From Squalus acanthias (taxonomy: Eukaryota), in the NCBI GenBank assembly GCA_030390025.1, contig CM059433.1, positions 68,820,001 to 68,884,000 on the forward strand: a DNA stretch of 64,000 nucleotides. Direction: 5' to 3'. Of the stretch, positions 18,297-51,941 are shown piece by piece. Every line of letters begins with the position of its first letter. The first letter of the stretch is position 1. Under the pieces are notes generated by a model. That model was given only the letters and a program-made list of their open reading frames with translations, was not told where the DNA came from and did not search any database. Made by a program: the position numbers and the translations under genes.

Positions 18297-18425
18297 GACA
18301 AATACTGCAGATGCTGGAGGTCCGAAACAAAAAACAGAAAAGGCTGGAAACACAGAGCAGGCCAGCCAGTATCTGTGGAGAAAATGGACATATTTACAGG
18401 TCAGGTGCAGACCCTACTTCAGAAC
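18297..18425 (-). mobile_element. Degenerate Penelope-like pLTR fragment (family 2)
   Basis: AATACTGCAGATGCTGGA...AAACAGAAAAGGCTGGAAA...ATCTGTGGAGA, similar to 5760 and 39341. Confidence 0.55.
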
Positions 18426-25541: not shown

Positions 25542-26495
25542 ATGGCAGCACAGCTCGGCGCCGTGATATGCTCCTCCTGCACTATGTGGGAAATTGGGGA
25601 CACTTGCTGTGGCCCTGTTGACCATGTGTGCGGGAAGTGTATCCAGCTGCAGCTACTGGCAGACCGCATTGTGGCGCTGGAGCTGCGAATGGATACATAC
25701 TGGAGCATTCGCAATACTGAGGACCTCGTGGATAGCACGTTTAGGGAGGTGGTCGCACCGCAGGTAAAGGCTGCACAGGCAGGAAGGGAATGAGTGACCA
25801 CCAGGCAGAGTAGTAGGCACAGGCAGGTAGTGCAGGGGTCCCCTGTGGCCATCCCCCTCTCAAACAGATATACCGCTTTGGATATTGTTGAGGGAGATGG
25901 CTTATCGGGGGAAGGCAGCAGCAGCCAACTTCCTGGCACCATGGGTGGTTCTGCTGCACAGGACGGGAGGAAAAAAAGAGTGGGAGAGCTATAGTGATAG
26001 GGGATTCTATTGTAAGGGGAATAGATAGGCGTTTCTCAGGCTGCAAACGAGACTCCAGGATGGTATGTTGCCTCCCTGGTGCAAGGGTCAAGGATGTCTC
26101 GGAGCGGCTACAGAGCATTTTGGAGGGGGAGGGGTGAACAGCCAGTTGTCGTGGTGCATATAGGTACCAACGATATAGGTAAAAAACGGGATGAGGTCCT
26201 AAAAGCTGAATATATGGAGTTAGGAGGTAAATTAAAAAATAGGACCTCAAAGGTAGTAATCTCAGGATTGCTACCAGTGCCACGTGCTAGTCAGAGTAGA
26301 AATAGAAAGATATTTCAGATGAATACGTGGCTAGAGGAATGGTGCAAGGGGGGGGGATTCAAATTCCTGGGACATTGGAACCGGTTCTGGGGGAGGTGGG
26401 ACCAGTACAAAATGGACGGTTTGCACCTGGGCAGGACTGGGACCGATGTCCTAGGGGGAGTGTTTGCTAGTGCTGTTGGGGAGGGTTTAAACTAA
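25542..26495 (+). pseudogene. CR1 ORF1 (zinc-finger/coiled-coil plus SGNH esterase), disrupted
   Basis: CSSCxM...CGKC; NRYTAL; VIGDSIVRG, VVHIGTNDI and DGLHL esterase blocks. In-frame stop at 25791 and frameshifts. Confidence 0.88.
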
Positions 26496-26691
26496 AATGG
26501 CAGGGGGTTGGGAACCTGTGCAGGGAGACAGAGGAAAGGGAAGCAAGGATAGAAGCAAAAGACAGGAAGGAGAAAAGCAAAAGTGGCAGTCAGAGAAATC
26601 AAGGGTTTAAATCAAACATGGCCACAATAAATAATAATTCTAAATGGTCCAAGAGTGTTAAAAAAACAATGCGAGGAGCATTCGTAATAAG

Positions 26692-29443: not shown

Positions 29444-31129
29444 ATTTGGATGATCAGCCATGATCTCATTGAATGGCGGAGCAGGCTCGAGGGGCCAAAT
29501 GGCCTACTCCTGCTCCTATCTTCTATACTTCTATGATTTCAATCCCTGGCCTTTACTATCCATGGAGTTCCAATCACTGTTTTGCCATTAGGAAGCTTAA
29601 TTATTTTAATCTGCTGCTGCTGAGTGGGGGGGGGGGGGGAATAGGTTTCAATTTAATAAAATCTTAGCTTTTTAACATTATATATTTTCTTATTGGCAAA
29701 TAGGGGATTCAAATCTTAGCTTGCTGCTCATAGGGGCTCGTTCCTATTCCTATTGATTACAGTACTTAAAAGTACATTTTCAATGTAGTATTACTTTTTA
29801 CTAAAGAGTCCCAAGTTTCTCACTCACAATGGAAGCCCAGTAATGCTGAGAGAGCATCAGTAACAGCATCCCTTTATGCATCAGACTCATCGACTACTTG
29901 GGGTCAGTTTGAAGTTTTAGGCAGACGACTAGAGGGGTGTGCCGGCACCCTGCCCCTGCCCCTGCTCAAGTAGGCAGGGACTTGACATGACCAATCCCGG
30001 TTCCATTTCTCACACCCACCCACCAAATACCGCCCTAAAATTAGGCAGAACCCAGATATCTCGACTTTGGTGTCTGGACTTGCGTATGAAAAATGGGCAC
30101 AAGTGAGGGACCGGAGGGGGCTGGTATCTGCAAAACTGTATCGAGCATGAGGCAGCGCTTTGAGGAGGGAAGAGAAAATTGGAGGAGCAAAAATCTTTGT
30201 AAACAAACACATTAGGACTGTGTTTACTTAATCGTTTGATAAGACATGTCACTGTCACTGCCATCCTATCTACAGAGAAAGATGTCAATATGAGGCATTG
30301 CTGCTCACATGTTCGAGTCCTGTGACAACCAACACGCAAACTCTTTATTATCATTACCAGTTTCAAGCTGGATAGCCCACCAGGGACAACATGCACTTTG
30401 ATCAATCTGTAAAATGGAGTTCTAACTGCTGTGCTGTAATCTGTACTCATTCGCAGTACTTCCTAAGTGTAGAAGCATGTACAAGTAAATAGTCTGGGGG
30501 TAAGAGGAGGAGAGAGAGGGTGAAAATATTTTTTTTTTACTTCAGCACATTTTGCAAGTTCTGGGAGTCTGTGCGAGCAGGCAGATTGATTCTGCCTAGT
30601 TTCAATTTAAAATTAAAACTATTTTAACCACTCTTAAATTGAACCATCCTGTATACTGAACGCAAGTTCTGAAAACTCCTCAGTTAAAAGACGAGTGTCA
30701 AGAGGGTGTTAGTTCAATATTCACATTAGTTACAATGTTCCTCATATTAATTAGATTGTTTATGCAAAGCAGGCATTTGTTTGTGTTTCCATAGCTAAAC
30801 CTTTGATGAGGTTTCCAGCAATCAAACATGTCTGGACATGCTGACTGTGTTTAGCAGCATATCTTTTGGTAGAGGGCCTTTCTGTTACTCGAGTTCAGAA
30901 AGTAAGTGTGATTATTATTTTCTTGCGGAATAATAAATTGAATCATGTTGATGCATTTAAAGGGAAGCTAGATAAGTACATGAGGGAGACAGGAATGCAA
31001 GGATTTGTTGATAGGGTGAGATGAATTAAGGTGGGAGGAGGCTCGTGTGGCATATATATATAATTCATAATGTTACTGCTTGCTGATAGTGGAGAAAAGT
31101 GAAATAGCTTAACCAGAAAACCAGACTGA

Positions 31130-32264
31130 GGTCTAAATATTCAACTGCGCAGCGCCTATTTTTCAGCTGCTAAACGGGCTCCTAAGCCTCCAACATGGCA
31201 GGTAGGAAGCACATGTTCATTACGAGCCGGAAGTGCCTGCCATTTTGCTGTAGGCAAAAATAAAACTGGCTGTAAAGTGCTTTGGGTGTCCTAAGATCTT
31301 GAAAGGCGCTCTACTATCGCTTATAATTTTGTTTTGTGTCAAGTTTGTATGCAACCAAAAGCATAAGAAATTAACACCTGTGATTAGCTCTAATAGGCCT
31401 AGTCCTGCCATCCAACTAATCTGATCAGTATTGGCGGCTTCCAGCTAATCTGATTGTTTGATATTGACAACCGCCAATCCCAATGAAAAAGTTGAGATGT
31501 GCAAGCAAACCAATATGTGGGTTGAAGCGCTGATTATCAACTTAAAATGCTGACGATTGTCATTTATGCTAATGTTTCTGTACTGCACCTATGACAGGGA
31601 GGGGCAAGGAGCAAAACATTTTCACTCAAGGTTATAAATCCAAGTCTTTCTTTTATTTGAATATGCAAAGGGCCTAATGCCTATTTGAAGCTCCCTCTGA
31701 AATATTGGGTTGCCTTGATGCTGGCCGTGTTCAGCAAAACCAGGTCTACATGTGGCCTAACAGGTGGTGCTTAAAGGGACTGCTGCAGGCTGCGACCAAC
31801 AAAGTAAGCATTCACCTGAATGTGGAGCTGGGAAGAGCAGGAGTGCTTCCCTTGACCCCACATTTAAAACATGCGGACCGCTGCCAGCCACCAATAGTGA
31901 CCTTGACCTCCCCGATCTCTACCGCTACCCCCTCCCACAGATCACAGTCTCTGCCATCCCCAACCAATCCCAACCTTTGCCCATTACTTCCATCACCACT
32001 ACCTACCCACTCCTGGCCACCGCTATTGTACCGACCCGAATGCCCTCTTTCCTGACTCCCTTCCCAACACAATCACTGTTGTCGCATTGACCCGATCATC
32101 GATTCCTCTTTGTCGGCGAGCTGCCTGGGGATGCCTCTTGGGTGTCTGTAGCTTACCGGCACGATAATAATGAGGCCCGAGGCCCAATATCACGTGCACC
32201 TCAGGCTGATTCATTCAGTTGCAGGGATTGATCCCAAAAATGGGTGTGCTTGAATTTCTAGGCC
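31130..32264. mobile_element. Old non-autonomous TIR element, probably with internal insertions
   Basis: Imperfect TIR GGTCTAAATATTCA / TGAATTTCTAGGCC; flanks TGA/TGT. Confidence 0.4.
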
Positions 32265-33111
32265 TGTAACTAAAGAAAGACAGCTGATAGCATTATTCCC
32301 TCTTCTCGAGCTGATGGTTTAGATTGGTAAAATGGGAATCCCATTTGAGAAGCACATGCTCTCAGATACTGGCTCAGTAGTTCTTTCAAAATATAATCCT
32401 TTTCATGCTGATTGTAAGGCAAAGGCTTCCTAAGTACAAGTGAAATAAATGTCTTTTACCTGCTGAGAGTCCCAAGATATGACCAAAAGCCTCCACAAGC
32501 AAGCTCAGTTGTTGCTTTAACCAAGTATTTCCACCTTGATGAACACCTCCTGGAAAACTACACCTGTTAAGTAGTATTCTCAAGGGTAGATCGGAAGGCA
32601 AAAGTAATTAAATTTAGGATTGGTAACATCATCCTATCGTAACTCCGTCATTTGCATGTGACTGCTACTGGGAGGGCGGGTGCTTCTGCAGTGGAACACC
32701 ATTGCTTCCCAAGTTTCCATTCAAGTCACACCCACCCCTATTAGCCAGAGTGCTCAGCCATTAGATGCACCAGTAAACAGATACAAGACAACTTTAATGC
32801 GCATGATGACAATGTGACAACATTACATGTCATGGATACTGACGTGTTATGTCACCACTTCTGTCATTATATTGGAGATGGCACAATCCTCTGCCATCCT
32901 GAGTTACTTAGTTCGCTGGAGGCCGTGGAGATTGGCCTGCGATTAGGCTGCTCTATACTGTGATTTTCACACTGAATTTACGTCAGTATGCCTATAGATT
33001 TTGTGTAAAAATTTCCATCTATCACAGATTTACTTCAGCACTTATCTCCAAGATCACTTTGAATCAAATAGACAGTCACTGAATATAATCAAATTCAGTC
33101 ACAAACACTAT

Positions 33112-35775
33112 GGGCTGGATTTTGCCAGCCCTGGGGAGGCGGGTTTGGAGGCGGGACTGCCGGGAAAATGGCAGAATCTGGGGGCGGGTACCCATCCCGC
33201 TCCCAACCTGCCTCCGTGCCATCTTCCCGGGAGGCAGGTAGCCGACCCTCGCCGGGTCCCATCTCCTGGAGGCGGGAAGGGGATTACAGCCACTTAACTG
33301 CCTGTTAACAGGCAGATAAGAGGATTATCCCCATTTTACCCACACAAGTGCGGGCTTCCTGAAGGCTGAAAACCCCGCCAGGGTCACCGAGGCGAGCAGT
33401 GGGTCTGCGGGGGTTGTAGGGATGCAAAAGTGCGCTGTGAAGGTAAGTGATGGGTGCAAGTGTGGAGAGGTAAGTATGTGAGGTGAGTGGAAAGTGATAG
33501 AAAATGTTTACTCACCTTTGTTTCTTCCTGCAGGCTTCAAACGTTGGGGATGCGGAGAGTCTCGCATCTCACCGGCAGAGATGACAGATGGCTGCTGCAT
33601 TCTCCAATGCAACAACCATCTAATTTCTGCTCACAAAAGAGGTTTGATGAGTCTTGAATACAAGAACTCATCAAACAACATAGAATGTCAGTGTTTGACA
33701 GCTTTGACAGTGAAGTGCGGCTGGCCCATGAGAGGGAGGATGGCGAAAGGGGACATGGAAGTGGGAACTCCACTCAAAGCGCTTCCACGTCTCACCCGTT
33801 GTCCCCACCCCCTCAGTCATTACCCAATATACTGCCTCGTCTCCCGATGGCCCAGTCTGCCACCGCACAGGTGCGGGTGGAGCAGTCTTTGGCCGGGCCC
33901 TCACAGGCTGCAAAACCCAGAGGTTGTCGGCCAAGAGCATCTCAGCAGTCAGAGCAGGGATCTGAGCTGCCTGCCTCTATGGAAGAGTGGCCATTGCATG
34001 TGGTTCTGACATGGGTCCACTGGTGGAACCTAAGTGAACCTTGCGTTAATAAGGGCATCCCTGGCAACAATGTGAGCAGCTGGTGCTCCATTGCCCTCAT
34101 CACCTTCCTCCGCCTCCTCAGAATCGTCTGCAGACGATCTGCGCCTTGTTCCTCCTGCAGGTCCAAACCTCGCTGCTGTGCAATGTTGTGCAGAAGGCAG
34201 CACACCACGACTATTCTGGACACCCTGACTGGTGTGTATGGAAGGGCTCCTCCAGATCTGTCTCAGCACCTGCAGCTCATCTTCAGCATACTGATGGCTT
34301 GTTCGATCAAACATCTGGTGGTTATAAGGCATTCACTGCAGCGCTGTTGGGCTTCATTGGTCGGGTTTCTGACGGGTGTAATCAGTCAAGTTTCAAGTGG
34401 GTGTTCCTTGTCTCTGGCAGCCATCCCTTAAGTGTGCTTGCAGATCCAAAGATGTCAGGGAGCTTGGACTGCTGCAGCATGAAAGCATCATGGCAGCTGC
34501 CCAGGAATCTTGTGCACACCTGCAGAAGTATCTTTTTGTGATTGCATACCAGCTGCACATTGATGGAATGGAAGTTCTTGCGGTTGATGAATACTACTGG
34601 TTGATCTGGGGGTGTGCGAATTGCCACGTGTGTGCAGTCAATGACGCCCTGCACCTGTGGGAAGCCAGCCAGAGCAGCAAACCAGAGCGCCCGCTTATTC
34701 TAATTGGCATCATCGCAGAAAAAAGTGTACATAATTGTCGGCCCTGGAAAACTAGTCAGCAGTCACCTGTCTTATGCATTTGTGGGCTGCCGACTAGGAG
34801 ATCCTGGATATCTCACCGGCAGAGCCCTGGAAGTATCCGGAGGCAAGAAGTTGAGGGTGGTGGTCACTTTGACAGCCATTGGTAATGTGTGGCCACCAGG
34901 TCCAGCAGGGAGCAGGTCTTCTAGGAGGCTGCAGATATCTGTCACCACCTGATACGACAACCTGAGCCTCCTGAAACACTGCTGTTCCGACATGTCAAGG
35001 AAACTCAGCCACTGCCTGTGCACCCTATGTTGCAGGTAGTGACTCCTGCGAGCTACTCCCCTCTGTCCAGCTGCAGGTCTCTGAACAGCAGGCTGGTGGT
35101 GCTGCTCATATTGCTCAGAGGTCCAATCTAAGGCAGCCAAGGCGCCAGCCATCCTGATGTGATTCAGAAAACTTCCAGCGTGTAGAATGTAAACTCTGAG
35201 CAAAAGTACAGTGAACAAACCCTTTCCCACTAGTAGGTAAGAAGTAGCAGAGAGTACAGAGTATTTATTGTAGTATTTCCATGAGTTTTGATCAGCCGCC
35301 TCAATTGCCGTTGCATTCCTGCCTTGCTTTCATTGGTGAGTTTCAGGAAGCTCGGGAAACCCGTGGATGCGACATTAAATTTAAAAGAGAGTGGTTAGAA
35401 TGTGGAACTTGCTACCACAAGGAATAGTTGAGGCGAGGTGACAAGCAGAGATGCATTTAAGGGGAAGCTAGATAAACACGAGGGAGAAAGTAGTAGAAAG
35501 ATATGTTGATGGGGTTAGATGAAGTAGAGTGGGAGGAGGCTCGTGCGGAGTATGAACACAGGCATGGACCTGTTGGGTCGAAAGGCCTGTTTCTGGGCTG
35601 TAAATACAATGATATACTATGTAAAAGTGTGTTGAAATATGGCTCCAATTGAGTGATTAACATATATTAATAAGCAATCCTCCTCTCCCGAGGGGTTTGC
35701 ACGCAACCAGCCTAACATACTTGAATTAAACTCGAAAGTCAGCGGGTTGGAGCCGGCTTCCTGACGCGCTCCCAT
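33112..35775. mobile_element. Composite Harbinger locus: inverted family A half (33112 to ~33710) fused to an autonomous Harbinger remnant
   Basis: Left TIR GGGCTGGATTTTGCCA, ~600 bp of family A, then a Myb-gene 3' remnant (+) and transposase (-). No intact right TIR; a CR1 3' piece is inserted at about 35385-35625. Confidence 0.75.
34030..35152 (-). pseudogene. Harbinger (HARBI1-like) DDE transposase, frameshifted
   Basis: QQCFRRLRLS, AVKVTTTLNF, QGVIDCTHVAI, FINRKNFHSINVQLVC, GSCHDAF and VCCLLHNIA, spread over several frames. Confidence 0.9.
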
Positions 35776-36134
35776 AATGCCAGCAGGCTATTTGACTGTG
35801 GAGGACATCACAGACAAGTCAATGCAGTCTTCATCCAACTTCCACAAATGTGCATTTTCAACAGGTGTCACTGAATAATGGGCATGAATAGGAATCCTGA
35901 TCAATTTTGCCTTCCCAAAATCAGAAATACTACTGCCAATTATACTACTTTTAACACAGCTCTAGCAAAATCAAGCTAAGTCAGCACCAACTGAGGTTCG
36001 AACCTCAGACTTTCCTGATCCATATGACAGAAATGATCATATTAAGCCATGGAAGGAATTAATCATTTTTAAGCATTCAGCAAATGCAGGGGTTACTATT
36101 GTTTCGACACTCCTTGTGACCACGATGCATTATT

Positions 36135-38240
36135 CCTCCTCGATCTCTCTAAAGACTTTAACATGGTCGACTACATTATCCTCCTCCGTTATCCAGCTCA
36201 GTAGCAGTGCTCTTACTTGATTCCACTCTTACCTATCCGATCATAGCCAGAGCATCTCTACCAAATGCTTCTCCTGCCACCCTAGTACAATCACCTTGGG
36301 TAGCCTCCATGGATCCATCCTTGGCCCCATTTTCTTCCTCATCTATATGCTCCCCCTTGGTGACATCATCTGAAGAAACGGGGTTAGCTTCCACATGTAC
36401 ACCACAACCACCCAGCTCTATCTCTCCACCACCTCTCTCGACCCCTCCACTACCTCGGTGCTGTCAGACTGCTTGTTCGAATTCCAGTCTCTGATTAGCC
36501 ACAATTTCCTCCAGTTAAACATTGGCAAGACCAAAGCAAATTGTTTTTGGCTCCTACCACAAACTCTGTACCTTTATCACCGATTCCATCCCTTTTCCTG
36601 GCCACTCTCTCAGACTGAACCAGACTGTTCGCAATCTTGGCGTTCTATTTGATCTCAAGGTGAGTTTCTGACTCATTATCATCTTCATCACAAAAATTGT
36701 CTTACTTAAATTTCTATGATTGCCAGTCTCTGCCCCTACCCCACCCATTTGCACCGAAATCCTCTTTAATGCCTTGTTGAAATCACCTTGTTCAAAAGGT
36801 GATCCAATCAGAGGCTGGGAATTCTGCGGCGAGTGACTCCCCTCCCAATCCCCAAAGCCTTTCCACCACCTACAAGGCACAAGTAAGGAGTGTGATGGCA
36901 TACTTTCCACTTGCCTGGATGAGTGCAGCTCCAACAACGCAAGAAGCACGACACCATCCAGGACAAAGCAGTCCGCTTGATCAGCACCCCATTCACCAAC
37001 TTAAACATTCACTTCCTCCATCACTGGCGCACTGTAGCTGCAGTGTGTACCATCTACAAGATGCACTGCAGCAATGTGCCAAGGCTTCTTTGACAGCACC
37101 TCCCAAACCTACGACCTGTACCACCTAGAAGGACAAGGGCAGCAAACTCATGGGAACACCACCACCTGCAAGGTCCTCATTACACACCATCCTGACTTGG
37201 AAATATATCGCTGTTCCTTCATCATCGCTGGGTCAAAATCCTGGAACTCCCTACCTAACAGCACTGAGAGAGTACCTTCACCACAGAGACTGCAGCGGAT
37301 CAAGAAGGCGGCTCACCACCACCTTCTCAAGGGTAATTAGGAATGGACAATAAATGCTGGCTTTGCCAATGACGCCCACATCCCATGAATGAATAAATAA
37401 AAGGGTTGGTACTGCATAGAATAATCAGGGCCAAACTGATGTCCTGGACTAGTTTCAATCACCAAAGGTGGTCAGAGTGGAATTTTCCAGATTTTTTTTT
37501 TCTGAATTGTGGGTTTTTATTTGGTTTTTAGCATCTCTCAGGAGACCATATGGTTTCAGATGGGGTGGAGAGTGTACAGATTGTGATGCACAAGGCATCA
37601 CAATTGTGATGGACAGATTGGATGGACCAGAGGGCCTTTTCCTGACAATTTTTCGCATGCCTTGGTCGTTCTCGACGCGATTACCCCAATGCGCTCCTAG
37701 CTACCCTCCCATCTTCCACCCTCCATAAACTTCAGCTCATCCAAAGTTCCGATGCATACATTTTATCTTGAACCAAGTTCCGCATGCCCATCACCCCGTC
37801 CTCATTAATCTATTTTGTCCCCGGAGCCCCAATGCCTCAAATGTAAAATGCTCATTCTTGCCTATAAATCCCTTCAAGGTCTCACACTTCCCTATCTCTG
37901 TAATTTTCTCCAGATCTACAACTCCAGCGCGCAGCCCCACCCCGCCCCCCCCCACCTCCAGATCTCTTGGACTTCTGCCTTTTAAGCTAACCCTGTCCCT
38001 TCACGCCATCATTAGTGTCCGTGCCTTCAACTACCTATGCTCTACACTTTGGGATTCCCTTCCCAAGCACCTCCATCTCTTCTTCTTTAAGACCCTCATT
38101 AAAAACTCTTAGATCAAGCTTTTGATCACCACTCCTAATATCGCCTTCTTTGGCTTGGCAGATATTTGTTTTCCTTACGTCTCCGTGAAGTGCCGTGTGA
38201 CATTTTTCTGTGTTATAGAGATAAAATAATACAAGTTGTT
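36135..38240 (+). mobile_element. Decayed L2 LINE interrupted by other LINE pieces
   Basis: TQLYLS...NFLQLNIGKT at about 36400-36540; resumes at about 37710 and runs to the tail AATACAAGTTGTT at about 38240. Confidence 0.7.
36800..37402 (+). mobile_element. 3' end of a CR1/L2-group LINE (YKAQVRSVMEY type)
   Basis: YKAQVRSVMAYFPLAWMSAA, KSWNSLP, HHLLKGN*, tail CCCACATCCCATGAATGAATAAA. Same family at 38720, 53965 and 57668. Confidence 0.8.
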
Positions 38241-38406
38241 ATTTCACCTTTCTTCTGCGTCAATCATACTGATGTCGTTTATAGTGATGTGCACAATTAA
38301 TGCAAGATAAATTCTCATCGTCTGTACGTGTTTTTATTCCTGTAATATTACTTAAACTAAATACTGTGTTAAAAAGAAAGTTGAAACAGTAGCAATAGTG
38401 AATGAA

Positions 38407-38578
38407 GGGGTAGTTTTACGAAAACCCACACCCAGCAGGGTGCCTCGCCCAATAGGAGCACATATCTGGAATTTAGACAATTTTACAGCAATTAAAATTA
38501 ATAGACAAAGTCATGGGATTCCATATTCAAATTTCCAATATGTGCTCCAGGCAAGGCACAATTTCATAAATTTACCCC
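38407..38578. mobile_element. Short MITE
   Basis: TIR GGGGTAGTTTTACGAAA / TTTCATAAATTTACCCC; internally self-complementary. Confidence 0.55.
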
Positions 38579-38719
38579 CATTAAATAAAAATTAAAGTTA
38601 AAAATGCTTTGTACAGATCGAGCACAACAGCGACAGATTTTAGCTGGATATTTTGATAAATTTTGTTGTCATATTTTTCATTTGGCTTAGCAACATACAG
38701 GTTTGAAAAAAGATCTTTT

Positions 38720-39231
38720 GTAATGGAATACTCTCCACTTGCCTGGATGAGTGCAGCTCCAACAACACTCAAGAAGCTCGACACCATCCAGGACAAAGCA
38801 GCCCGCTTGACTGGCACCCCATCCACCACCTTAAACATTCACTCCCTCCACCACCGGCGTACCGTGGCTGCAGTGTGTACCATCAACAAGATATACTGCA
38901 GCAACTCGCCAAGGAATCTTCGACAGCACCTCCCAAACCCTCGACCTCTACCACCTAGAAGGACAAGGGCAGTAGGCGCATGGGAACACCATCACCTCCA
39001 AGATCCCCTCCAAGTTACACGGCATCCTGACTTGGAAGTATATTGCCGTTCCTTCATAGTCATTGGGTCAAAATCCTGGAACTCCCTAACTAATAGCACT
39101 TTGGGAGTACCTTCACCATATGGACCGCAGCACTTCAAGAAGGCAGCTCACCTTCTCAAGGGCAATTAGGGATAGGCAATAAATGCTAGCCTTGCCAGGG
39201 ACACCCACATCTCATGAACGAATAAAAAAAA
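38720..39231 (+). mobile_element. LINE 3' end, same family as 36800
   Basis: VMEYSPLAWMSAAPTTLKKLDTIQDKAARL...HLLKGN* plus tail. Confidence 0.82.
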
Positions 39232-39317
39232 CGAATTCCCAATATATAGTCAGCCTAAACCTTTACTTATTGATAAGTCTCTAACAGGCGAGGAAATTTT
39301 AAGTACTGAAAGAATGA

Positions 39318-39815
39318 ACAAACTTGCATTTATATAGTACAAAAACAAAATAATGCAGATGCTGGAAATCTGAAATAAAAACAGAAAATGCTGGAAATAC
39401 TCAGCAGGTCAAGCAGCATCTGTAGAGACAGAAACAGAGTTAACGTTTCAGGTTGATGACCCTTCGTCATTTATATAGTACCTTTTATAACCTCAGGACA
39501 TCCCAAAGCACTTTACAAAGGATTAATTACTTTTGAAATGTAATTACTGTTGTTCTATAGGCAAACGCAACAGCCAATTTGTGCACAGCAAGATGCCACA
39601 AACAGCAATGAGATAAATTATCAGTTAATTGGTTTTCTAGTGGTGTTGGTTGAAGGGGAACTTCCCTGCTATTCTTAGAATCGTGTCATAGGATTTTTTA
39701 CATCCACCCGAGAAGGCAGGTGGGACCTCAGTTTAACGTCTTATCCAAAAGACAGCTGCTCTGACAATGCAGCACTGCCTTACTACTGAAGTATCAGTGC
39801 AGATTATGTGCTCAT
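39318..39815 (-). mobile_element. Deu-domain-like SINE interrupted by a Penelope-like fragment
   Basis: Homologous to the SINE at 16806-17745. Confidence 0.7.
39341..39467 (-). mobile_element. Penelope-like pLTR fragment (family 2), truncated within a hammerhead core
   Basis: Exact 14-bp TSD CATTTATATAGTAC (39327-39340, 39468-39481). Minus strand reads (a)TGACGA-AGGgtcatcaaCCT-GAAA-CGTT. Confidence 0.8.
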
Positions 39816-41218
39816 GAGTTTAAGCTTCACAACTGGAAGACAAAGTTAATTATTATTCAGCATAACTACTGCCAGCAGTTATTGATTGCCTTTGGCAGGG
39901 TCACATTAGGGCCATCAGGCAGGGTATCTGATCAGTGCATACTGATTTTGGTAGACAAACAGCCTGAGTGGTCTCATTAGATATACTGGGAAGAGGCAAG
40001 TAAGGAACAAGAAGCTGTCTTTATACTTATATTTTATATACACACACACACACATAATGCGTGTGATACTTTAGCAAATCTGTACACAGGCAAATATTTC
40101 TTGATTGCATAACAAATGTTATGAACTGTAAACATTACTTCGTACAGGCACCATTAAGATATTCCAAGTATTTGAGAAGTACAATGTTTCATGTCTTCCA
40201 AAGGTACAATAATATTGCTAATCAAATTAATAAAATATCTGATTAATGAGAAACATTAAACTCCAGTAAATGCAACAGATATCAGTTCCATGGCAGCTAA
40301 AAAAAAAAATCTAACATCTGAGTCCAGAAGAGTAAGTACTTTTTTTTTAGAAAAAAGGAAAACATTTTTAAGCAGGGCTACTGTAAAATAGATCTTTCAT
40401 GCCTGGAAGCTGAATCCAGCCTGGAAAGATTGCGTGAAAATTTCCTCTAATGCAGGCCAACCAGAGAGGATGACATTCTCCTCTCTCTCTGACTGTCCTG
40501 AGTGAAGGTAAGGACCACATTTTTAAATGTGTTCAACACATAATGGTGTTATCACTACACTTGTGCTCTGAAACATATGCATTCTCTATAAACTTTTATT
40601 GTCCATATATTTTAGAATTAGCAACATACATTCTGTAGAATCAGCAGCATCAACTCCAAGCCAACCACCTCCATGGAATACAGGATGCCAGACGAATCTT
40701 ACAAAGTAGATATGAACAAGAAAGCAATATTTTTCAAACGACAGGACATGTGACACAACAAAACACACATTCGAGCAGTGATGGCGTAAATGAAAATTTA
40801 AAAATTCACCGTGGCTGCTCGGAGGTATATAAGGGAGCTGTGGATGGCAGTGTTGGAATGATTGGAGCATACGTCTAATCCCAGCACACACCTCTTGTGT
40901 ATTTGATCCACGTTATAGACACCTGGGTCTCAAAATTGGATAAGGCCCGAAAACAGGCACGGACAGCGTGAAGCGCAATGTGCCCGTGCCCGTTCAAAGT
41001 AGTGCAGGCAGCACGCAAAATTCGTGCTACCTGCTCATTAGAATGATTGCAGCGCTGATCTCAGCACTAAACGCGCTGCTGATTGGGTTAGTGCTGAACA
41101 GGGGGCCTAATATCGGGTGCAATCTACTGGCCTATAAAGTTTGGCCTAGACTCTCTGCACTACTTAAAGGGGAAGTGCTCTGTTGCAGAAGCACCTCATT
41201 GTCATTGTGGAGAAAGCC

Positions 41219-43049
41219 ATGGCCCAACAGTCAAGAGAGAGGGCAAGGAGATTTTCTGATGCGGCACTGGAGGCTTTGGTCCTGGGGGTTCAAACACACA
41301 GTCAGGTCCTCCACCTGCAGGAGGCCTTCAAGGCAGAACAGCAGAAGGCTGTGGGAGGAGATAGCTGAAGCAGTGTGACGAGTGTTGTCCGCAGGACCTG
41401 GATCCAGTGCTGCAAGTTTAATAACCTCACACGAGTGGTCAAGGTGAGTGAATGCATCTTCAGATGCCATATCCCACCACTAGCCCCACACACTGCTCAA
41501 TGCACCATACCTCCATCACTCACCTACCAACAATCTCTAACAATCACCACTCACATCTCACAATCATAGCTTCACTTCACCCTCACACACTTACCACTGC
41601 TGCAAGACTCACACCCACATCTCACACCTTGCACACACCGCCAGCTATTCAACCATGACAGGCACATCACCCAAACACATTGCACCACACTCATTGACAC
41701 ACTTCCCTTTCTCTTGCAGGCAAAGATGGCTCATAACCCCTGGGAACAGCAGCAGACGGGTGGAGGGGAAGCCAGTCTGCAGCACCTGACAGAGCTGGAA
41801 GCAGTAGTGCTGGAGATCATTGGAGAGGCCATTATGGAGTCCGTGGCGAGCGGTGAAATTGAAAGCATTGCTGATGATGACGGTATGCTCATACCTAATC
41901 CTCCTTCTCACATCCCACTTTCTCCTCATCCCACAATCTCGTCTCACTTACAAGCTGCTGATGGTGTATGCATGTATATCTTGCTTTCCCCCACTCCCCT
42001 CACCACAATCCAACCCTTGTGCCTTTCTCCTTTCAGATACCCAAGAAGTCCCACCAGCACAGCCAGTCCCCAAAGTGATGGAGGAGAGTGAAGGAGAAGA
42101 CGACACACCGTCACTGCATCTGACACTCACAGGCACCAGCTCAGAAAATGGCACTGTGCGGACTTTAGGGGGTAGTATAGAGGCGGTATCTGTCCATGGT
42201 GAGTCACCGGGCATGAGTGGGCTGCAACCAAACCAGGGTGAAAAGGGTAGCTCAGGTGCCAGCTCCCCAGAGGGCAAGTTCACGCATGAGTTCTGCTGCA
42301 TGGGACTCAGATGATGACCTTGATGGGATGGCCTTCAGAAGAAGGGAGATTGGCATGCACACAGAAATACTTGGTGCAATGGCAAGCCTACCAGAGAACC
42401 TCTTGTCGGTGTCAAGGAGCATGGAGGAGCTTGCATGGGGCTTTGTGTGGAGCTTGGAGCCTGTGATTTCCAGGATGGAAATGATGGGCAACTTCATGAT
42501 GGAAAACTTCATGAGACACCTTGTGGACCCAACCATGAAGCTGCGTGTCATGGGCAATGTCGCAGCTTCCGTTGCAGCACAGGCAGAAGTGACCCAACAT
42601 CTTAGTTATGTAGTGGAAGCTCAGACTGCTGCCATCATAGGTGGGTTTACAAGTGTGGAAAGGGGCTTGCAGCACTCTAGCAATCTGTCAACAGATGGCT
42701 AGGAATGCTTAGGTGCCGCCCCGGGGGAGTGACAGTGGCTCAGTGGAGCAAGAACCTGCTGTCCACTCTCAGGACGACAACATTCATACTCCCACCATTG
42801 CCACTCCGCCAGTGCCCTTGCTGCTACCCGTCATCCAGCCAGCCCAGACTGCTGCTGTCTACAGCCGGATCTTCTAGGGCCAGAGCTGCTAGAGGTTGCC
42901 CTGCAAGGCAATCTGCAGTGTCCCCCACTGAAAGGCTGCAGTCTTCCACCAGCCATGCTGCAGCCACTGGGGGAGCACTGCGTAGAAACACTAGAGTAGG
43001 AAAAGGAACACAAAAGACAGATACTAAGAGAATGCACAAGAGTGATTAG
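41219..43049 (+). pseudogene. Harbinger Myb/SANT (NAIF1-like) DNA-binding gene, 3 exons (41219-41443, 41720-41882, 42037 to ~43049), frameshifted
   Basis: MAQQSRERARRFSDAALEALV...LWEEIAEAV...RTWIQCCKFNNLTRVVK|gtgagt; ttgcag|AKMAHN...TGGG...; |gtatgc; tttcag|. Confidence 0.8.
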
Positions 43050-43215
43050 TTGATTTTGTTGTTTTGATTTGGATTTGATAAATTTATAAATTACATTTGG
43101 AATGTTTGTTTTGTGGTGGATCTCATTTCAGCTTTGTCCCCAGGAGGACGCTGTGCTGTTCCGTGACAGAGGGATGGTAAGATGGGGAAGTGGTGAGCAA
43201 CAGGGATCTGGGGTT

Positions 43216-44272
43216 TCATTCATTGGAACCGGAGTCTGACGAGGCGCTCACGGCCAGCCCATCCAGAACGGAGATCTGATGCCTGCCTCCTCTCTTCCTC
43301 CTCCTGAGGTGGTCCCGGAACCCATGGTGGCCAAGTTGTGCAGCATGCAGCAGACCATCACGAAATGAGACACCCGCTCCAGCAAACACTGGAGGGCCCA
43401 TCCCGAGCAGTCAAGGCAGCAGAACCATTGCTTGAGCACCCCGATGGTCTGCTCGATTAGGTTCCTCATGGCAGCATGGCTCTCATTATATGCTTGCTGG
43501 CCACAAGTGCTGGGGTTGTGGAGGGGAGTCATCAGCCAGGTGCAGAGCGAATAGCCCTCATCTCTGAGTAGCCACCCTCGGGTTCGACATGGTGGCTGGA
43601 TGATTTCTGGTACACTGGACTGGTGCAGGATGAAGCCATCATGACTGCTGCCAGGATACCAGGTATTCACCATCATAATGTGCTGGGCGTGGTCACACAC
43701 CAACTGCACATTAAGTGAGTGGCAGCTTTTGCGGTTATGGAACATCTCAGGATTGGTATGTGGTGCCCTGCACCATTGGGAAGCCCGATATCCTGGCAAA
43801 GCCACATGCGCGCTTCGTCCTGTTTCTCTCCGTTCAGAGACAAGACAATGAAGTCCCTTCTCCTGGAGCACAGAGCCTCTGACCTCCCGGATGCAGCGAT
43901 GGATGTCAAACTGGGAGATGTTAGCTAGGTCTCCTGCTCCAGACTGGAACAAGCTGGTGGCGAAAAAAATTGAGGGCCACGGTGACCTTGAAGGCCACTG
44001 GCAATGCCGTCGTCGTCCTGCTCGGAGGCTGCAGGAGGTGGCAGAGCTGTGACCACCTCCTTGGTGAAGCAGAGCCTCCTAATACACTGCCCCTGGCTTA
44101 AGTGCAGGTAGGAGAAGTGCTCTCGGAAGACCCTAGGTGGATAAGGCCTCCTGCTGAGAGCCCTCCTGCCCCTCCTCCACCCTCTGCAAGCATCTTGTCA
44201 TCTACTTCGCTGCCTCCGCTCCAACTTCCTGTCATACTCGAGCGTGAGGGGGACTGCAAGTAGAGCCCCCAT
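43216..44272 (-). pseudogene. Harbinger DDE transposase, decayed (DCTH motif deleted)
   Basis: QCIRRLCFTKEVV, FHNRKSCHSLNVQLVCD, YPGSSHDGFIL, WLLRDEGY, YNESHAAMRNLIEQTIGVLK, CCMLHNLA. Confidence 0.88.
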
Positions 44273-45336
44273 GACTGGGAGCAAGTGGTCTGAACAGAAC
44301 CCTTTAAATCAGAAGCAAGGCCTTCTCCACTTGCAGCAACACTCCCCGTCACCTGACCAACTTTAAATAACTGTAGAAAGCTCCAAACAGTTGCACAAAC
44401 TTACACGGAGCCAGTAGAAATCAAAAAGCAAGTCAGCTGCAAGTTGTTGCTGATCCCTTTTAATAGCGCTGGTGGGTGGTCCTTCCTGCTGCTGGACGCA
44501 TGTTCAGCTGGTTGTGATTTGAAGAGGGCGTTAAAAGGAGCGGCAACATCCAAAATAGCAGGTCGTGTGTCAACTCAGCATTGCATGCCGATTGACGTCA
44601 CAATCTGCCTCATCTAAATATCTGCAGCGAGCACAGGCAACGACAGCACTGTCGGCCTGCCCAAAATGGCGGCCGCTGCATTCTGCACTGGAAATGGACG
44701 GAAGCGAGGCAGCCGCCATTTATTCTTCCAAACCAGCCTTAACGGCCGACACAAACGAGACCAATTTCCTAGCCCCAGTGTACTAATCAAAACACTTCCC
44801 ATTACAACAGCAATCTTCATCATAAAGGAATAGTCTGAATGCATGTCCACCTTGACTGAGTTATCATACTCAAAAAACAGGTCTTCTCAGGCAGGATTCA
44901 TTGTTCATGTACAATCTTACATTTAGCTTTCACCTAACACTACCTTGAATTTCTGTCTCTGCACTTTTGAAATCAAAATTTTCAAATCATTGGCCCGGTT
45001 CATACAGTAGCAGAGAACTTTGCCGCTGACACAGGGAGTGATTGATTATCACACCATCATGTCTTATGGTGTTCTGAGCACTTGTCTGAACACTATATTC
45101 ACACTTAACTCAGGGCAGTCATAAACATTGCAACATTTTATTTATAACCACAGCAATCAAAGTAGAATTGAGATACAGTTTTGGGTTCACTCATAATTAG
45201 AAGGTGGCAGAACACATGAAACTTCCGGTTTTTAATTACCAGTTTTCCCCGGGCTGTAGGTCAAATTTGCCCAGTTGAAAAACAAAAGTGAGAAGTCGCA
45301 CAACACCAGGTTATAGTCCAACAGTTTTATTTGAAA

Positions 45337-45375
45337 TCACAAGCTTTCGGAGCTGCTGCTCCTTCGTCAGGTGAA
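45337..45375 (-). ncRNA. Minimal type I hammerhead ribozyme motif (CLIC5-sense strand)
   Basis: Minus strand reads TTCAC-CTGACGA-A-GGAGC(agca)GCTCC-GAAA-GCTT-GTGA. Confidence 0.72.
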
Positions 45376-45380
45376 GTGAC

Positions 45381-45418
45381 TTCACCTGATGAAGGAGCAG
45401 CGCTCCGAAAGCTTGTGA
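45381..45418 (+). ncRNA. Minimal type I hammerhead ribozyme motif
   Basis: TCAC-CTGATGA-A-GGAGC(agc)GCTCC-GAAA-GCTT-GTGA: core boxes intact, stem II, stem I TCAC/GTGA, palindromic AAGCTT in place of stem III. Predicted cut after 45414. Confidence 0.72.
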
Positions 45419-46874
45419 TTTCAAATAAAACTGTTGGACTATAACCTGGTGTTGTGCGACTTCTCACTTTTGTCCACCCCAGTCCAACACCGGCATCTCT
45501 GCATCACAGTTGAAAAACTGCAGTGACTTGTGCTTTCAGCTCACATCATCACTGCACCAGTGAGTAATGCTGCTGGTATATTTTAGGACTAAATGTCAAC
45601 CAATCCTTGCTGCTCTGGAAAGCTCCCTGCTATCGGGTGTCAGCTAAGTAGTGTATCTAACCATCAGGCCCTTACCATCTCTAAACTCTGCCAAGACAAG
45701 GACCTGCAAGAAGGAAAATCTGTAATAAAACGCGATGCTGCAGGAAAACTTAGGATGCAAAGAAAACAATAACTCAGTTTCAGTTATATGGAGTTCAATT
45801 TGTCAATGGAAATTCAGAATCGAATCTGCTCCTACGTGTTTTTTCTCTCCGCTGTTGGTATTTGATCCAAACACTGGCGTTTCAGGTTACTGAGCTGGAG
45901 TGCTACTCACTCTGACGTTCTGCTGATAGCTATATGCCAATGGAAAATTGCTATTTCAACTGCTACAGTACAAACCCTCACAATCTTGGACAGTGGTGCC
46001 AATTCAGTAGCTGCTTCATCTTTCATTTCAAGTTGTACTGAAGTCAGCAGCCCTACAATACAAGAGGAGCATGTCCCCAACTTTTTAAACACGGGTCTCC
46101 CTGGTAATGCTGTAATGATGTTGTTGCAGGGAGTTATTTTCAGGTTTATTTTAGAAGCAAATTATGGACAGCAAATGCGCATGACTTTACACAGCTCAGG
46201 ATTACGCAGCTTCAGCCCAAAGAAGGAATGATATTGGAAATTAAGTTTCAGGCTTGTAGAAGTCACAATGGGAAATATCACAAATTTGGTGGAACTGTGT
46301 AGACAAGCACGTTTTTCTGGAAGGACATGACTGAAAAGTACCAGAACCCACAGCACCATTTTGAGTCAAAGAATATTTTAGGCTAGTGCAAAATTTTCCG
46401 GCGCGGACACGATGGGCCGAAATGGCCTCCTTCCGTGCTGTAACTTTCTATGAAATGGAGCTTTAGAATACTGAGACTTCAACAGTTTTCAAAGGGAACA
46501 TCTTTCCTTCTTTAGTGAGATAATATTAAGGCCCTAACCAGTCTGTTCACAGCACTAACAGACTACCTATGACTCACACAAACGACAGGAAAAAGTCATC
46601 GTCAACCCATGGCCTTTAATAATTTATTTATAGGGTTCAAACAAACTATTTTTATAGACAGCTGCTGCTGGACAACATCAACTGCAGCAAATTCTTTATA
46701 AATATACAGGTCAAATTCTACACGAGAAATAAGAAGTGGATTGGTTTCTCTTTTACTAAATGTTAGATAGAATTTTTAATTTTAATTTGAGAACTAATTG
46801 CTAAGTGCAATGTACCAAGATTACTCTGTTGGAAACATAATTCTCCTCTCCTAAAAGTAGTGTCGCCTGCTGAG

Positions 46875-47175
46875 GTCCTTGAAGTCCAGGTATCATTCTG
46901 GTAAACCTACGCTGCACCCCCTCCAAGGCCAATATATCCTTCCTAAGGTGTGGTGCCCAGAACTGCTCACAATACTCCAGGTGTGGTCTAACCAGGGCTT
47001 TGTATAGCTGCAGCATAACTTCTACCCCCTTGTATTCTGGTCCTCTAGATATAAAGGCCAGCATTCCATTAGCCTTTTTGATTATTTTCTGTACCTGTTC
47101 ATGACATTTTAATGATCTATGTAACTGGACCCCCAAGTCTCTTTGGAATTCCACTGTTTTTAGCCTTTCACCATG
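46875..47175 (-). mobile_element. CR1 ORF2 fragment
   Basis: QRDLGVQLHRSLK...KANGMLAFI...LVRPHLEYCEQFWAPHLRKDI. Confidence 0.85.
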
Positions 47176-47764
47176 CAAGAGGGCAGGGTACAGGATTTGT
47201 TTTTTATTCGAATGGGGGGGGCCTCCTCTTCCGCGCATGTACCACGGATCTGCTGTGCAAGTGGACTGCTGTTCAGTTGTTCCAGCCACATTATAGGAAG
47301 GCCTTCTCATTTATACTGACGTTGAGGGCCTACCTAGTGTACAGCTTACATGCACGCTCCCAGCCCCCTTTCCACTATCCATTCACACTAGGGCATGCCG
47401 AGTGCCTCAGGCATGTTATAGGCCTCAGGACTCTGCGGCCAATTTTCCAGGGCGCATTATCTGCGTGGGTGTTACAGCCAAATCCCACCCTCTCACACGC
47501 GTATTCCCAGTGTGTCTCAATCCAGAGCGAAAACTCTAGACAAACTTTTTTTTGAGGGATATTGAAGCTAACTATAATGTGCTTTCTGCCAAGCTTGGGC
47601 CAGCTAACTCAGCAAAGGCACTCGATGAAACCGGAGCCCAGATTTTCTGAGTTTGGGAAAATCAGGGGCATACGTGCTTGTGCAATGCATGGATGGTGCG
47701 AGAGGGGCTAGTATGGCCAGAGGGAATGTATACCGTTCTCATCAGAGTTAGAATGTGTGCGCAT

Positions 47765-48530
47765 TCATTATTGAGGAGAGGCAATATAAACTAAAGGGTA
47801 CAATTCTAAAGGGGGTGCATGAACAGTGACACCTGGGGATATATGTGCACAAATCATTGAAGGTGGCAGGGCAGGTTGAGAACGCAGTTAAAAAAGCATA
47901 CGGGATCCTGGGCTTCATAAATAGAGGCATAGAGTACAAAAGCAAGGAAGTTATGATGAACCTGTATAAAACACTGGTTCGGCCTCAACTGGAATATTGT
48001 GTCCAATTCTGGGCACCGCACTTTAGGAAGGATGTGAAGGTCTTAGAGAGGGTGCAGAAAAGATTTACAAGGCTGGTTCCAGGGATGAGGTATAGACTGG
48101 AGAAGCTGCGGTTGTTCTCCTTAGAGCAGAGAAGATTGAGAGAAGATTTGATAGATGTGTTCAAAATCATGAGGGGTCTAGACAGAGTAGAGAGAAAGAA
48201 ACTGTTCCCATTGGCAGACGGGTCGAGAACCAGAGGACACAGATTTAAGGTGATTGGCAGAAGAACCAAAGGCGACATGAGGAAAAAAGTTTTTTACGCA
48301 GAGAGTGGTTGGGATCTGGAATTCACTGCCTGAAAGGGTGGTGGAGACAGATTCAATTGTGGCTTTCAAAAAAAAGGGAATGGGATAAGTATTTGAAGGA
48401 AAAAAAATTGCAGGGCTCTGGGGAAAGGGCAGGGGAGTGGGACTAACGGAAGTGCTCTTGCAGAGAGCCGGCATATGCTTGACGGGCCGAATGGCCTCCT
48501 TCTGTGCTGTAACTATTCTACGATTCTATT
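47765..48530 (+). mobile_element. CR1 LINE 3' end
   Basis: KKAYGILGFINRGIEYKS...LVRPQLEYCVQFWAP...RTRGHRFK; tail ATTCTACGATTCTAT. Confidence 0.88.
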
Positions 48531-49859
48531 ACCCACAGCTGCACAGTGGCAAAAGCAGTTGGCAATCAAGGAGCTTCCCTCCAGTTAGCGAGCCTGAAGT
48601 ATCAGCTCCCTCGAAGTAGACAGCTTCCCCCTCATTTCTTCCTCCTGTACTCTAGAGGCAGCAGGTGTCCACTCAAATCACCTGATTTTCTGTCCATTAA
48701 TTTAAATGGACAATCAGGCATGCAATCCCCTCTGCCCGATTTTCATCTATTCGCTGTGCTCATGCAATCCAATGCTCTCAGGCACAATACCTGGAGAATC
48801 TGTTCTGTGAAAGACTTGATATTGGTGATTATCTGGGTTATGTGTTTAGGGTGGGCTTTTGCAGCAAGAACTTAGAATTTTCAAATTTGAATGTCTGAAC
48901 CAAGCTGTGCATTTATTAATTTTTAACATATTTTCAGAATCTTACACTCTGGCTGGTTTACACTTATTTACAAAAATGTATGAAGAGGATGCACCCTGGG
49001 GGCCACTTGCTTGCAAAAATAAACACCGGATTGTGCGTCCATGGGGCAGTTATATGATTGGTTAACACAAAGCAAACCATGGGTTTACCAGTTGGTGTTC
49101 CTGGACCTCATGGGATCTGCAAGGGGCTGGCAGGGGATTCCTTAAGTCTTCAGATTTCTGTATTTGTTGATTTATATATAAGATCAATTAGTAAAAACAT
49201 TTTCTGAAATTCCTTTTGGTAGCTGACACTATCACTTGGAGTGTTAACATTTTCAGGGGGTCCCACACAGAAAGGGTTGAAAACCATTGCCAGAAATCCC
49301 AATTGGTATTCTATTTGTATACAATGGTCTAGGTCTTCCTTCCTCTCAGCAGAAGTGTGGCAGGGTGAGACTTATAAACGGCGCAAAGGATGCATCAGGT
49401 TCCTGCCTGGCCCTAGCTGGCAAAGTGCACTCTGAAGAATTTCCTGACACACTTCATTCAAGTTAAACCCGAGTTGGTGCAACTTGGATGGAAAATCTAG
49501 GCCAATATGTACACAGATATGAAATAGTTTTTGAAGTCCACTCATTTTTTTTGCTTGTTTATCTGTATTTTCAGGCACCCTGTTGCTAAGATGCAGAGCT
49601 ACACTTTTTTTTATATTCAGTCTGAGATTAGAGCTTTGAACATGAGGTGCTGTCTATCTCAAGAATAATGCAGTGTGAGTCACAAATTGTTAACAGGTTT
49701 ATTGGGTAGGAAGTAAATAGAGACAGTGTCGTGACTTCCGGATTTCGTCCAGTTTTCCCATCTGGATCACATACTCGTTCTCAAGCCCCCCCCCGCCCTT
49801 TAGACCTGGATCACGTACTTCCGCCATCCCCACTGTGCTCTCCGTACTCTTTACCACAC

Positions 49860-51290
49860 CCCCCACCCAGTTCCTGACCTCCTCTCTCTCCCCCCCTCCA
49901 ATTCCTCCTCCGATTCACCCTCCCCTCCCTCCCACCCCCCTTCCCTCCCTCCCTCCAATCCCCCCCTCCGATCCCCCTTCCCTCCCATACCGCCCTCCCC
50001 TTCCTTCCCTCCCTCCAATCTCCCCCTCCCTCCCCCCCACCCTCCGATCCCCCTCCGATCCAATCTCCCCTCCGATCCCTCTGCCCGATCCCCCCCTCCC
50101 TCCCTCTGCCCGATCCCCCCTCCCTCCGACCCCCCTGCCCGATCCCTCCCCTATTCCTCCCTCCCCTATTCCCCCCTCCCCCCGATCCCTCCCCTATTCC
50201 CCCCCTCCCCCGATCCCTCCCCTATTCCCCCCCGATCCCTCCCCTATTCCCCCCCTCCCCCTCCCCTATTCCCCCCCTCCCCCTCCCCTATTCCCCCCCT
50301 CCCCCTCCCCTATTCCCTCCCTCCCCTATTGCCCCCCTCCCCCTCCCCTATTCCCCCCCTCCCCCTCCCCTATTCCCCCCCTCCCTCCCCCCTATTCCCC
50401 CCCTCCCTCCCCCCCCNNNNNNNNNNNNNNNNNNNNNNNNNNNNNNNNNNNNNNNNNNNNNNNNNNNNNNNNNNNNNNNNNNNNNNNNNNNNNNNNNNNN
50501 NNNNNNNNNNNNNNNNNNNNNNNNNNNNNNNNNNNNNNNNNNNNNNNNNNNNNNNNNNNNNNNNNNNNNNNNNNNNNNNNNNNNNNNNNNNNNNNNNNNN
50601 NNNNNNNNNNNNNNNNNNNNNNNNNNNNNNNNNNNNNNNNNNNNNNNNNNNNNNNNNNNNNNNNNNNNNNNNNNNNNNNNNNNNNNNNNNNNNNNNNNNN
50701 NNNNNNNNNNNNNNNNNNNNNNNNNNNNNNNNNNNNNNNNNNNNNNNNNNNNNNNNNNNNNNNNNNNNNNNNNNNNNNNNNNNNNNNNNNNNNNNNNNNN
50801 NNNNNNNNNNNNNNNNNNNNNNNNNNNNNNNNNNNNNNNNNNNNNNNNNNNNNNNNNNNNNNNNNNNNNNNNNNNNNNNNNNNNNNNNNNNNNNNNNNNN
50901 NNNNNNNNNNNNNNNNCCCCCCCCCAATCTCCCCTTCCCTCCGATCCCCCCACACCCCCCCCCCCAATCTCCCCTTCCCTCCGATCCCCCCACACCCCCC
51001 CCCCGATCTCCCCTTCCCTCCGATCCCCCCACACCCCCCCCCCCCGATCTCCCCTTCCCTCCGATCCCCCCACACCCCCCCCCGATCTCCCCTTCCCTCC
51101 GATCCCCCCACAACCCCCCCCGATCTCCCCTTCCCTCCGATCCCCCCACACCCCCCCCCGATCTCCCCTTCCCTCCGATCCCCCCACACCCCCCCCCGAT
51201 CTCCCCTTCCCTCCGATCCCCCCAACACCCCCCCCGATCTCCCCTTCCCTCCGATCCCCCCTCCCCCCGATCTCCCTCTGCCCCCCTCTC
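49860..51290. repeat. C-rich low-complexity/minisatellite tract spanning an assembly gap
   Basis: Left of the gap: CCGATCCC and CCCCTATTCCCC units. Right of the gap: a ~37-bp unit CCCGATCTCCCCTTCCCTCCGATCCCCCCACACCC, about 9 copies. Confidence 0.92.
50417..50916. other. Assembly gap (500 N)
   Basis: Run of exactly 500 N, probably a placeholder size. Confidence 0.99.
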
Positions 51291-51941
51291 ATCTTGATGA
51301 GGTCACCTAACTCAGCACAGACCAGGGATTAAACTTGGGATTGCCCTACTCAGTGCGTTTCAGTTCCACACGCGGCAGTGTTACTTACCAACTGATCCAA
51401 TGAGTGGAGCTGATCAAATATAATGAAATATTTACTGTTAGTTATCCATTCTGAAAATGTGACAGTTTTATTTTAAGGTAGCAGGATAAAAAACTATTTT
51501 TTACAACACAATAGATGGCCCAAAGACTTTTTCCCCCATTTGGAGAGGTGGTATTATGTACTGTCATGTTCATCAGTTTTATAACATGAGAGATGGAATC
51601 ATTGTTTTTGATGTATTTTGTGGCCTCATGCATTACTATGACACGCAGTCACAAGTTTTTTTTTTCCAGTACTCAACTCGTGAGCAGCTTAAACCAACGT
51701 TTTAGTGAACACACCTGTTGTACAAATATTACTAAACATTTACTGTACCGAAACAGACTTGATCATAAAAAGCTTATAAAAACTCGTGCGCTTAGACTAC
51801 AAATATCAGTCCAGGAGACAGAAATACCATTTTATAGGATCTTCACTACCTAGCTCATTCTTTGGACAAACTTGTAACTGCAAACAAAATCCCCTTTTCC
51901 TCACTGGCAGAAGGACCTAATTTAAAGAGCATCCATCCTAC

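Follow-up and report, generated by a model that had tools for sequence, protein, structure and literature searches.

A palindrome with predicted hammerhead motifs in an intron of a CLIC5-like gene is very probably a by-product of Penelope-like element insertion

The 64,000-nt stretch of Squalus acanthias DNA analysed here (the window) contains a short palindrome with a hammerhead-like motif on each strand. We asked whether this palindrome is a non-coding unit that moves by itself, as the initial annotation had proposed, or is formed anew when a larger element inserts. The palindrome is 192 bp long (45282-45473) and centred on the G at 45378. Its left arm has 96 nt (45282-45377), of which the outermost 2 nt are shared with the end of the TSD, and its right arm has 95 nt (45379-45473). 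The insert proper, including a 33-nt tail, is 223 bp long (45284-45506) and is flanked by an exact 12-bp TSD, CAGTTGAAAAAC (Table 1). The palindrome, its 1-nt centre, the tail and the TSD agreed base for base with the initial description. As also described there, the sole differences between the arms were core position N7 (45366 vs 45390) and a single base in loop II (45354). The predicted fold of the insert had an energy of -187.8 kcal/mol (z -26.7), and 0 of 200 shuffled sequences were equally stable.

Table 1. Features of the insert and its host intron in the window.
Feature	Position	Strand	Basis or remark
Host intron after exon 1 of CLIC5-like gene	12972..51941	-	Splice sites and exon matches
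Left TSD, 12 bp	45272..45283	+	Last 2 nt microhomologous with tailless arm end
Inverted tailless pLTR arm, outward from predicted +1 (45377)	45284..45377	-	Sequence and comparison with RT-coding copies
Minimal type I hammerhead motif, N7=C, loop II AGCA; sense in CLIC5-like pre-mRNA	45337..45374	-	Predicted cut between 45341 and 45340
Centre G	45378..45378	+	Likely cap-derived extra base (right arm) or native -1 base (left arm)
Direct pLTR arm, predicted transcription start +1 = 45379	45379..45473	+	Upstream TATA-like box in read-through arms; identity to RT-coding copies
Minimal type I hammerhead motif, N7=U, loop II AGC	45382..45418	+	Predicted cut after 45414
AATAAA hexamer, possible pLTR polyadenylation signal	45424..45429	+	Sequence; function inferred
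PLE tail, 33 nt	45474..45506	+	Final A = first base of ORF start codon in full-length unit (L187)
Right TSD, 12 bp	45507..45518	+	Exact repeat of left TSD

The host gene is CLIC5-like and lies on the minus strand. The coding part of its exon 1 was found at 52004-51942 with a GT donor at 51941, exon 2 starts at 12971, and for each of exons 2, 3 and 4 CLIC5 was the best match among PDB chains. The assignment of the insert to CLIC5 intron 1 was correct as far as the window extends: it sits between the exon 1 donor and exon 2, in the approx. 39-kb intron after coding exon 1 and approx. 6.4 kb from the nearest splice site.

By its sequence the 223-bp insert represents a pLTR end left by a Penelope-like element (PLE) of the Neptune/Nematis type, one among tens of thousands of such leftover ends. 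A 28-mer derived from the arm had 92,044 exact matches in the 3.7-Gb genome. With the right arm and tail 964 first-look candidates were obtained, and the 40 that were scored were all 98-100% identical. The Penelope-like origin, already proposed initially, was supported by an identity of 98-99% between arm plus tail and the 3' ends of copies that encode an RT (L091-L093), and of 91% with L187, a whole unit of a sister subfamily. In L187 two copies of pLTR and tail lie 3,136 bp apart, in the order pLTR, tail, ATG at the tail end, ORF, and again pLTR and tail, with the predicted +1 at 3288 and the ATG at 3420. The link to a Penelope RT ORF on which the initial reading depended was found here, as the pLTR of L187 is joined to a single RT-coding ORF (RVT_1, E 2.2e-9). 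The C-terminus of this ORF may be GIY-YIG-like, its Atlas neighbours at 0.96 being clusters with GIY-YIG on 31-34% of their members; Pfam gave no match for the endonuclease domain, and a PDB search with the ORF returned weak RT matches only. A CX4CX2C linker between RT and EN was present in L187, L091 and L092. Because a CX2-5CxxC linker at this place is given as defining the Neptune and Nematis clades (PMC8557442), the linker assigns the family to Neptune or Nematis.

Large palindromes were observed as well. The unit of L187 (378-6560; C1:2359800-2366800) is near full-length at 3,136 bp with one frameshift near the 3' end, and is preceded by a 2.9-kb inverted copy of 99.3% identity, a large-scale version of the same architecture. 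L094 (828-3691) is a 2.86-kb palindrome of the same PLE family, with 1.43-kb arms 98.4% identical.

The hammerhead core motif occurred twice in the window, vs 0.08 occurrences expected, in agreement with the claim of one minimal hammerhead per strand. The motif has the core boxes, a bulge after A9, a G10.1-C11.1 pair and a palindromic stem III. The AAGCUU palindrome suggested for dimerisation at stem III was present, with a predicted duplex worth -6.5 kcal/mol. An Rfam scan found no hammerhead family at E<=10, and the only models retrieved were long-hairpin miRNA models below their gathering scores, which reflect the long hairpin. The hammerhead call rests on motif and covariation. In a set of 17 hand-picked variants, whose related rows amount to few independent events, 97.1% of the stem cells were paired vs 21-47% in slid controls. 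The stems covaried, with a stem I pair that was U-A in 9 variants, C-G in 7 and U-G in 1, and one stem II change from C-G to U-A; the core was invariant but for one U4C. Among 76 arms, for which the search pattern required U16.1, position H17 was occupied by U in 66 and by C in the other 10. We concluded that the fold of this predicted hammerhead is conserved across subfamilies. L165 and L167 are arms of a subfamily in which U4 has become C (core CCGACGA) and stem II is closed by a compensatory U-A pair.

The type I core, the extra base between A9 and G10.1, the G10.1-C11.1 pair, the 4-bp stem I and the palindromic stem III are shared with the metazoan PLE hammerheads of PMC4209133, whereas the 5-bp stem II of the present family differs from them. 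The same paper describes opposite-strand hammerhead pairs 100-700 bp apart in PLEs, and low activity of the minimal PLE hammerheads even as dimers. Copy ends did not pile up at the predicted cut, where one subfamily had no more than 306 of them compared to 4,557 at +1, and 7 of the 20 inspected copies that begin at or next to the cut were mere point variants. Because few copies start there, uncleaved RNA looks like the main template. On the predicted mRNA the hammerhead falls within the 5'-most 40 nt (L187 3288-3420; window 45379-45506), and cleavage there, 90 nt ahead of the ATG, would take off the cap, possibly as a switch of translation or template use.

The exact 23-nt centre of the insert occurred 289 times in the genome, among a total of 776 junctions in which two +1 ends are separated by 0-8 nt. 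We examined 33 of the 289 loci, i.e. the first 30 listed and three found by similarity to arm and tail. Flanks were different at all 33, a TSD of 12-15 bp was called at 27, and the combination of ends and haplotypes was never the same at two loci. At least five loop II types formed the identical junction, each from its own arms. As the 33 loci differ in TSD, subfamily and tail side, the exact inversion junction is a hotspot of repeated formation, and the palindrome is rebuilt at each insertion.

The recurrence of the inversion point with different TSDs had been put forward as the mark of an independently mobile unit. The recurrence was found, but this outcome fails to discriminate. A non-autonomous 223-bp unit, transcribed and re-inserted whole by the PLE protein, would also give 289 exact centres with differing TSDs, and non-autonomous hammerhead-bearing PLE derivatives have been described (bioRxiv 10.64898/2026.07.22.740005). 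We nevertheless regard such a unit as highly improbable. The centre G belonged to the tailed arm in 18 of the 33 loci and to the tailless arm in 14 (one locus had no tail), with no configuration common to any two, and several subfamilies had built the junction from their own arms. The single other locus with the 58-nt core of the window carried its tail on the opposite arm, arm lengths formed a continuum from <100 bp to 2.9 kb, and the TATA-like box is missing from the 223-bp unit. The claim of an independently mobile non-coding unit was therefore abandoned, and we consider it very probable that the palindrome arises as a by-product when a PLE inserts. The animal non-LTR retrozymes of the same preprint are likewise non-coding, PLE-related and carry a type I hammerhead; they are however head-to-tail tandem arrays, whereas the insert is a head-to-head by-product with no sign of mobility of its own. 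A one-off inversion was ruled out by the 289 recurrences together with the head-to-head pairs in an unselected sample.

This unselected sample comprised 101 arms from the first 3.1 Mb of contig C1. Sixty-four of the arms formed 32 head-to-head pairs with a spacing of 79-2,947 bp, and 31 of these pairs had exactly one tail, one had none and none had two. In the selected set of all fetched loci, 102 of 110 pairs had one tail and 0 had two. The TSD was 12-13 bp in 21 of 31 unselected pairs. The tailed ends clustered at one base (13 of 31), while the tailless ends were spread over 12 nt and had 0-4 nt of microhomology with the TSD in 26 of 31. The inverted pLTR and the retro-insertion with TSD, as initially claimed, were thus borne out. 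An inverted pLTR with a 30-40 bp tail at one end and a TSD is known PLE anatomy (PMC3846280; PMC8557442), and the insert has the anatomy of EN+ PLE insertions in its 33-nt tail at one end, inverted pLTR and 12-bp TSD. It shares with the canonical EN+ insertions the head-to-head inverted 5'-truncated copy, the one-ended tail and the short TSD, as well as TATA and the Inr-like TCACT in the pLTR (PMC3846280; PMC8557442), but unlike them is reduced to the stretch from +1 to the tail.

The arms of one pair were often unequal. Among 57 A-type pairs, short or read-through, 20 had arms with loop II of different length, as does the insert in the window. Such discordance was seen in 17 of the 48 short pairs and in 3 of the 9 long ones, sometimes at two linked sites. 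This gave no support to the notion that the 5' and 3' pLTR of one RNA are combined in short palindromes, long ones using a single pLTR.

Each arm of the insert starts on the A in TCACTTC, an Inr-like sequence. In read-through arms a TATA-like box was located upstream of this position, starting at a distance of 30-31 nt in 27 of 32 and of 34 nt in the other 5, and a similar pair of TATA and TCACT is reported for rotifer pLTRs (PMC3846280). From this context the A is the predicted +1. The pile-up of arm ends was measured as a purine replacing the native pyrimidine before +1, -1 or +3, with G counted by eye. A purine preceded +1 4,557 times, compared to 1,136 times before -1 and 883 before +3. 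Among 100 listed cases each, G made up 82 before +1, 54 before -1 and 66 before +3. When scaled, G before +1 was approx. six times and A approx. two to three times as frequent as at the neighbouring positions; G was also favoured before +3 (66 of 100 listed), so part of the G bias is general.

Some subfamilies natively have T at -1 (29 of 31 read-through arms). At 50 listed sites of these subfamilies the 1-nt centre was G/C in 12 and A/T in 4, while 17 junctions were blunt and 17 had longer centres; the 12 vs 4 did not differ significantly from 50:50 (p 0.077). In 10 of the 12 G/C centres the native base was readable from the loop type, and the G fell on either arm. Among 37 junctions with a purine before +1, G was found in 9 of 9 that were resolvable without A-microhomology, an untemplated G in 2, 7 were ambiguous and 19 unresolved. 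An extra G marks full-length LINE-1 insertions, where it is ascribed to the cap (PMC11702581). We infer that +1 is the RNA 5' end of the element. In the present family the extra G could come from copying of the cap or from non-templated addition by the RT, which are indistinguishable here; the centre G at 45378 is a likely cap-derived base of the right arm, or else the native -1 base of the left arm. Ribozyme cutting was rejected as the cause of the inversion point: the predicted cut lies 37 nt downstream of the centre and coincides with the ends of few copies.

In the main texts searched, older reviews apart, we found no earlier description of arm ends piling up with an additional G at the predicted +1, nor of a nearly strict rule of one tail per pair.

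How the two arms come to face each other may be explained by priming at both target ends. We consider it moderately probable that the insert is a short head-to-head insertion of a PLE pLTR end, made in one event with the RT primed on both nicked target strands, and grant the two-ended priming route for the palindrome nearly the same confidence. The GIY-YIG/RT protein of the element would cut both target strands approx. 12 bp apart. One target 3' end would prime at a distal initiation site to give a tailed cDNA, and the other at a proximal site approx. 33 nt upstream to give a tailless cDNA, both copying sense RNA toward the RNA 5' end. Where priming takes place at the signal approx. 90-130 nt from the RNA start, the copy would run off at +1 and gain a C opposite the cap. 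The two cDNA ends would then join by a template jump or by pairing of 1-2 nt, and fill-in by repair would leave a palindrome flanked by the TSD. Longer palindromes (to approx. 6 kb) would arise by the same route from the downstream pLTR, and the hammerheads would be carried along as part of the 5' UTR of the element. Two-ended priming is proposed because the one-tail pattern and the accumulation of arm ends at +1 with an extra G point to it, and because the genomic pattern can be combined with an in vitro result: a lizard PLE protein cut both target strands and extended them, starting at two internal RNA sites on either side of the tail (PMC11167929).

Alternatively, the palindrome could be rebuilt at each PLE insertion by self-priming, with one nucleic acid end forming a hairpin and being copied back. 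Self-priming on an antisense template was suggested by Arkhipova et al. for head-to-head PLE palindromes (PMC3846280). The arms of long palindromes are 98-99% identical, and C-N(0-4)-G centres, found at 6 of 50 listed sites, resemble hairpin loops together with the small palindromic junctions. Such a fold-back predicts identical arms, however, and the length of loop II is unequal in 20 of the 57 A-type pairs. Because the arms differ in this way, some of them at two linked sites (L052, L068 and L218), two templated copies are favoured. The extra G stands at the sense-strand +1 and on either arm, which also counts against fold-back, and the 0-4 nt of microhomology where tailless ends meet the TSD (26 of 31 pairs) argues for target priming of the tailless end. 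We therefore regard fold-back as unlikely, although of some weight. As for PLEs in general, we put at about even the chance that they integrate by such two-ended TPRT, with different initiation sites per strand, the capped sense RNA being copied and the copies joined at the cap.

Two-ended priming as proposed here has parallels in two other systems. Anolis Poseidon PAc (PMC11167929) likewise has two RT initiation sites flanking the tail, cuts and extends both strands, and uses mainly uncleaved RNA as template. It belongs to another clade without the Zn linker, its ORF starts inside the hammerhead whereas that of the present family starts at the tail end (+128 to +133), and inverted copies appear to be left unexplained in that account. 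In LINE-1 twin priming (PMC11702581) a second target end also primes the RT and two cDNAs join, and an extra G likewise marks the complete 5' end; twin priming however copies two adjacent non-overlapping RNA segments, while here the same segment would be copied twice to give a palindrome. The formation of inverted copies is described as a still undefined part of the PLE cycle (PMC8557442), which the junctions of the tens of thousands of near-identical insertions of this family test. If two-ended priming is true, it would account for the long-unexplained inverted pLTR and tail and supplant the antisense self-priming hypothesis; thousands of genomic fossil junctions would map the start site of the element to the base, and the template would be uncleaved, capped RNA. 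For the in vitro system already available for PLEs, the rule of one tail and the additional G at +1 yield sharp predictions.

A function of the insert at the locus, as dsRNA or as a ribozyme switch on the CLIC5-like pre-mRNA, is scarcely credible. The hairpin is predicted to be very stable (-171 kcal/mol on the transcribed strand), and lizard Penelope and palindromic repeats are reported to be heavily A-to-I edited (PMC5625713). The insert is however a young copy, 99-100% identical to dozens of others, at approx. 6.4 kb from the closest splice site, and the arm density equals the genome average of approx. one arm per 40 kb. Stem II of the hammerhead was predicted to form with a probability of 0.998 in the arm alone but of approx. 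1e-15 within the hairpin. The hairpin is thus predicted to block the ribozyme in pre-mRNA, in line with the initial proposal that it competes with cleavage. The hammerheads are likely inert at this locus, and cleavage of the host transcript by them is, from the modelled fold, unlikely. A-to-I editing of the insert hairpin in the host transcript is plausible, but any editing would be incidental. The locus itself appears as an ordinary young repeat and offers a modest mechanistic lead, while the family seeds the genome with many perfect intronic hairpins and is a likely source of ADAR substrates.

Other repeats were observed in the CLIC gene span. Inverted repeat pairs of other families (5559-9378, 21672-24441, 33111-33692 and 62673-63435), 77-316 nt long and 70-100% alike, exceed the 223-bp insert in total length as dsRNA sources. 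A second insertion, of another subfamily of the PLE family, lies on the plus strand at 11042-11143 of the window, in the intron after CLIC exon 2; it is a solo tailless arm (11062-11133) that is 93% identical to the full unit, begins inside stem II and has a 12-bp TSD.

Outside the window, the arms of two subfamilies were found tail-to-tail over a short shared spacer (L162/L163; C1:889299-889417), possibly by insertion of one arm at the target site of the other. Several unrelated PLE insertions were located at the same few positions of repeats (e.g. L007, L008, L015, L017 and L029), hinting at a target-sequence preference of the PLE. The repeats often targeted in this way are presumably CR1/L2-like LINE copies.
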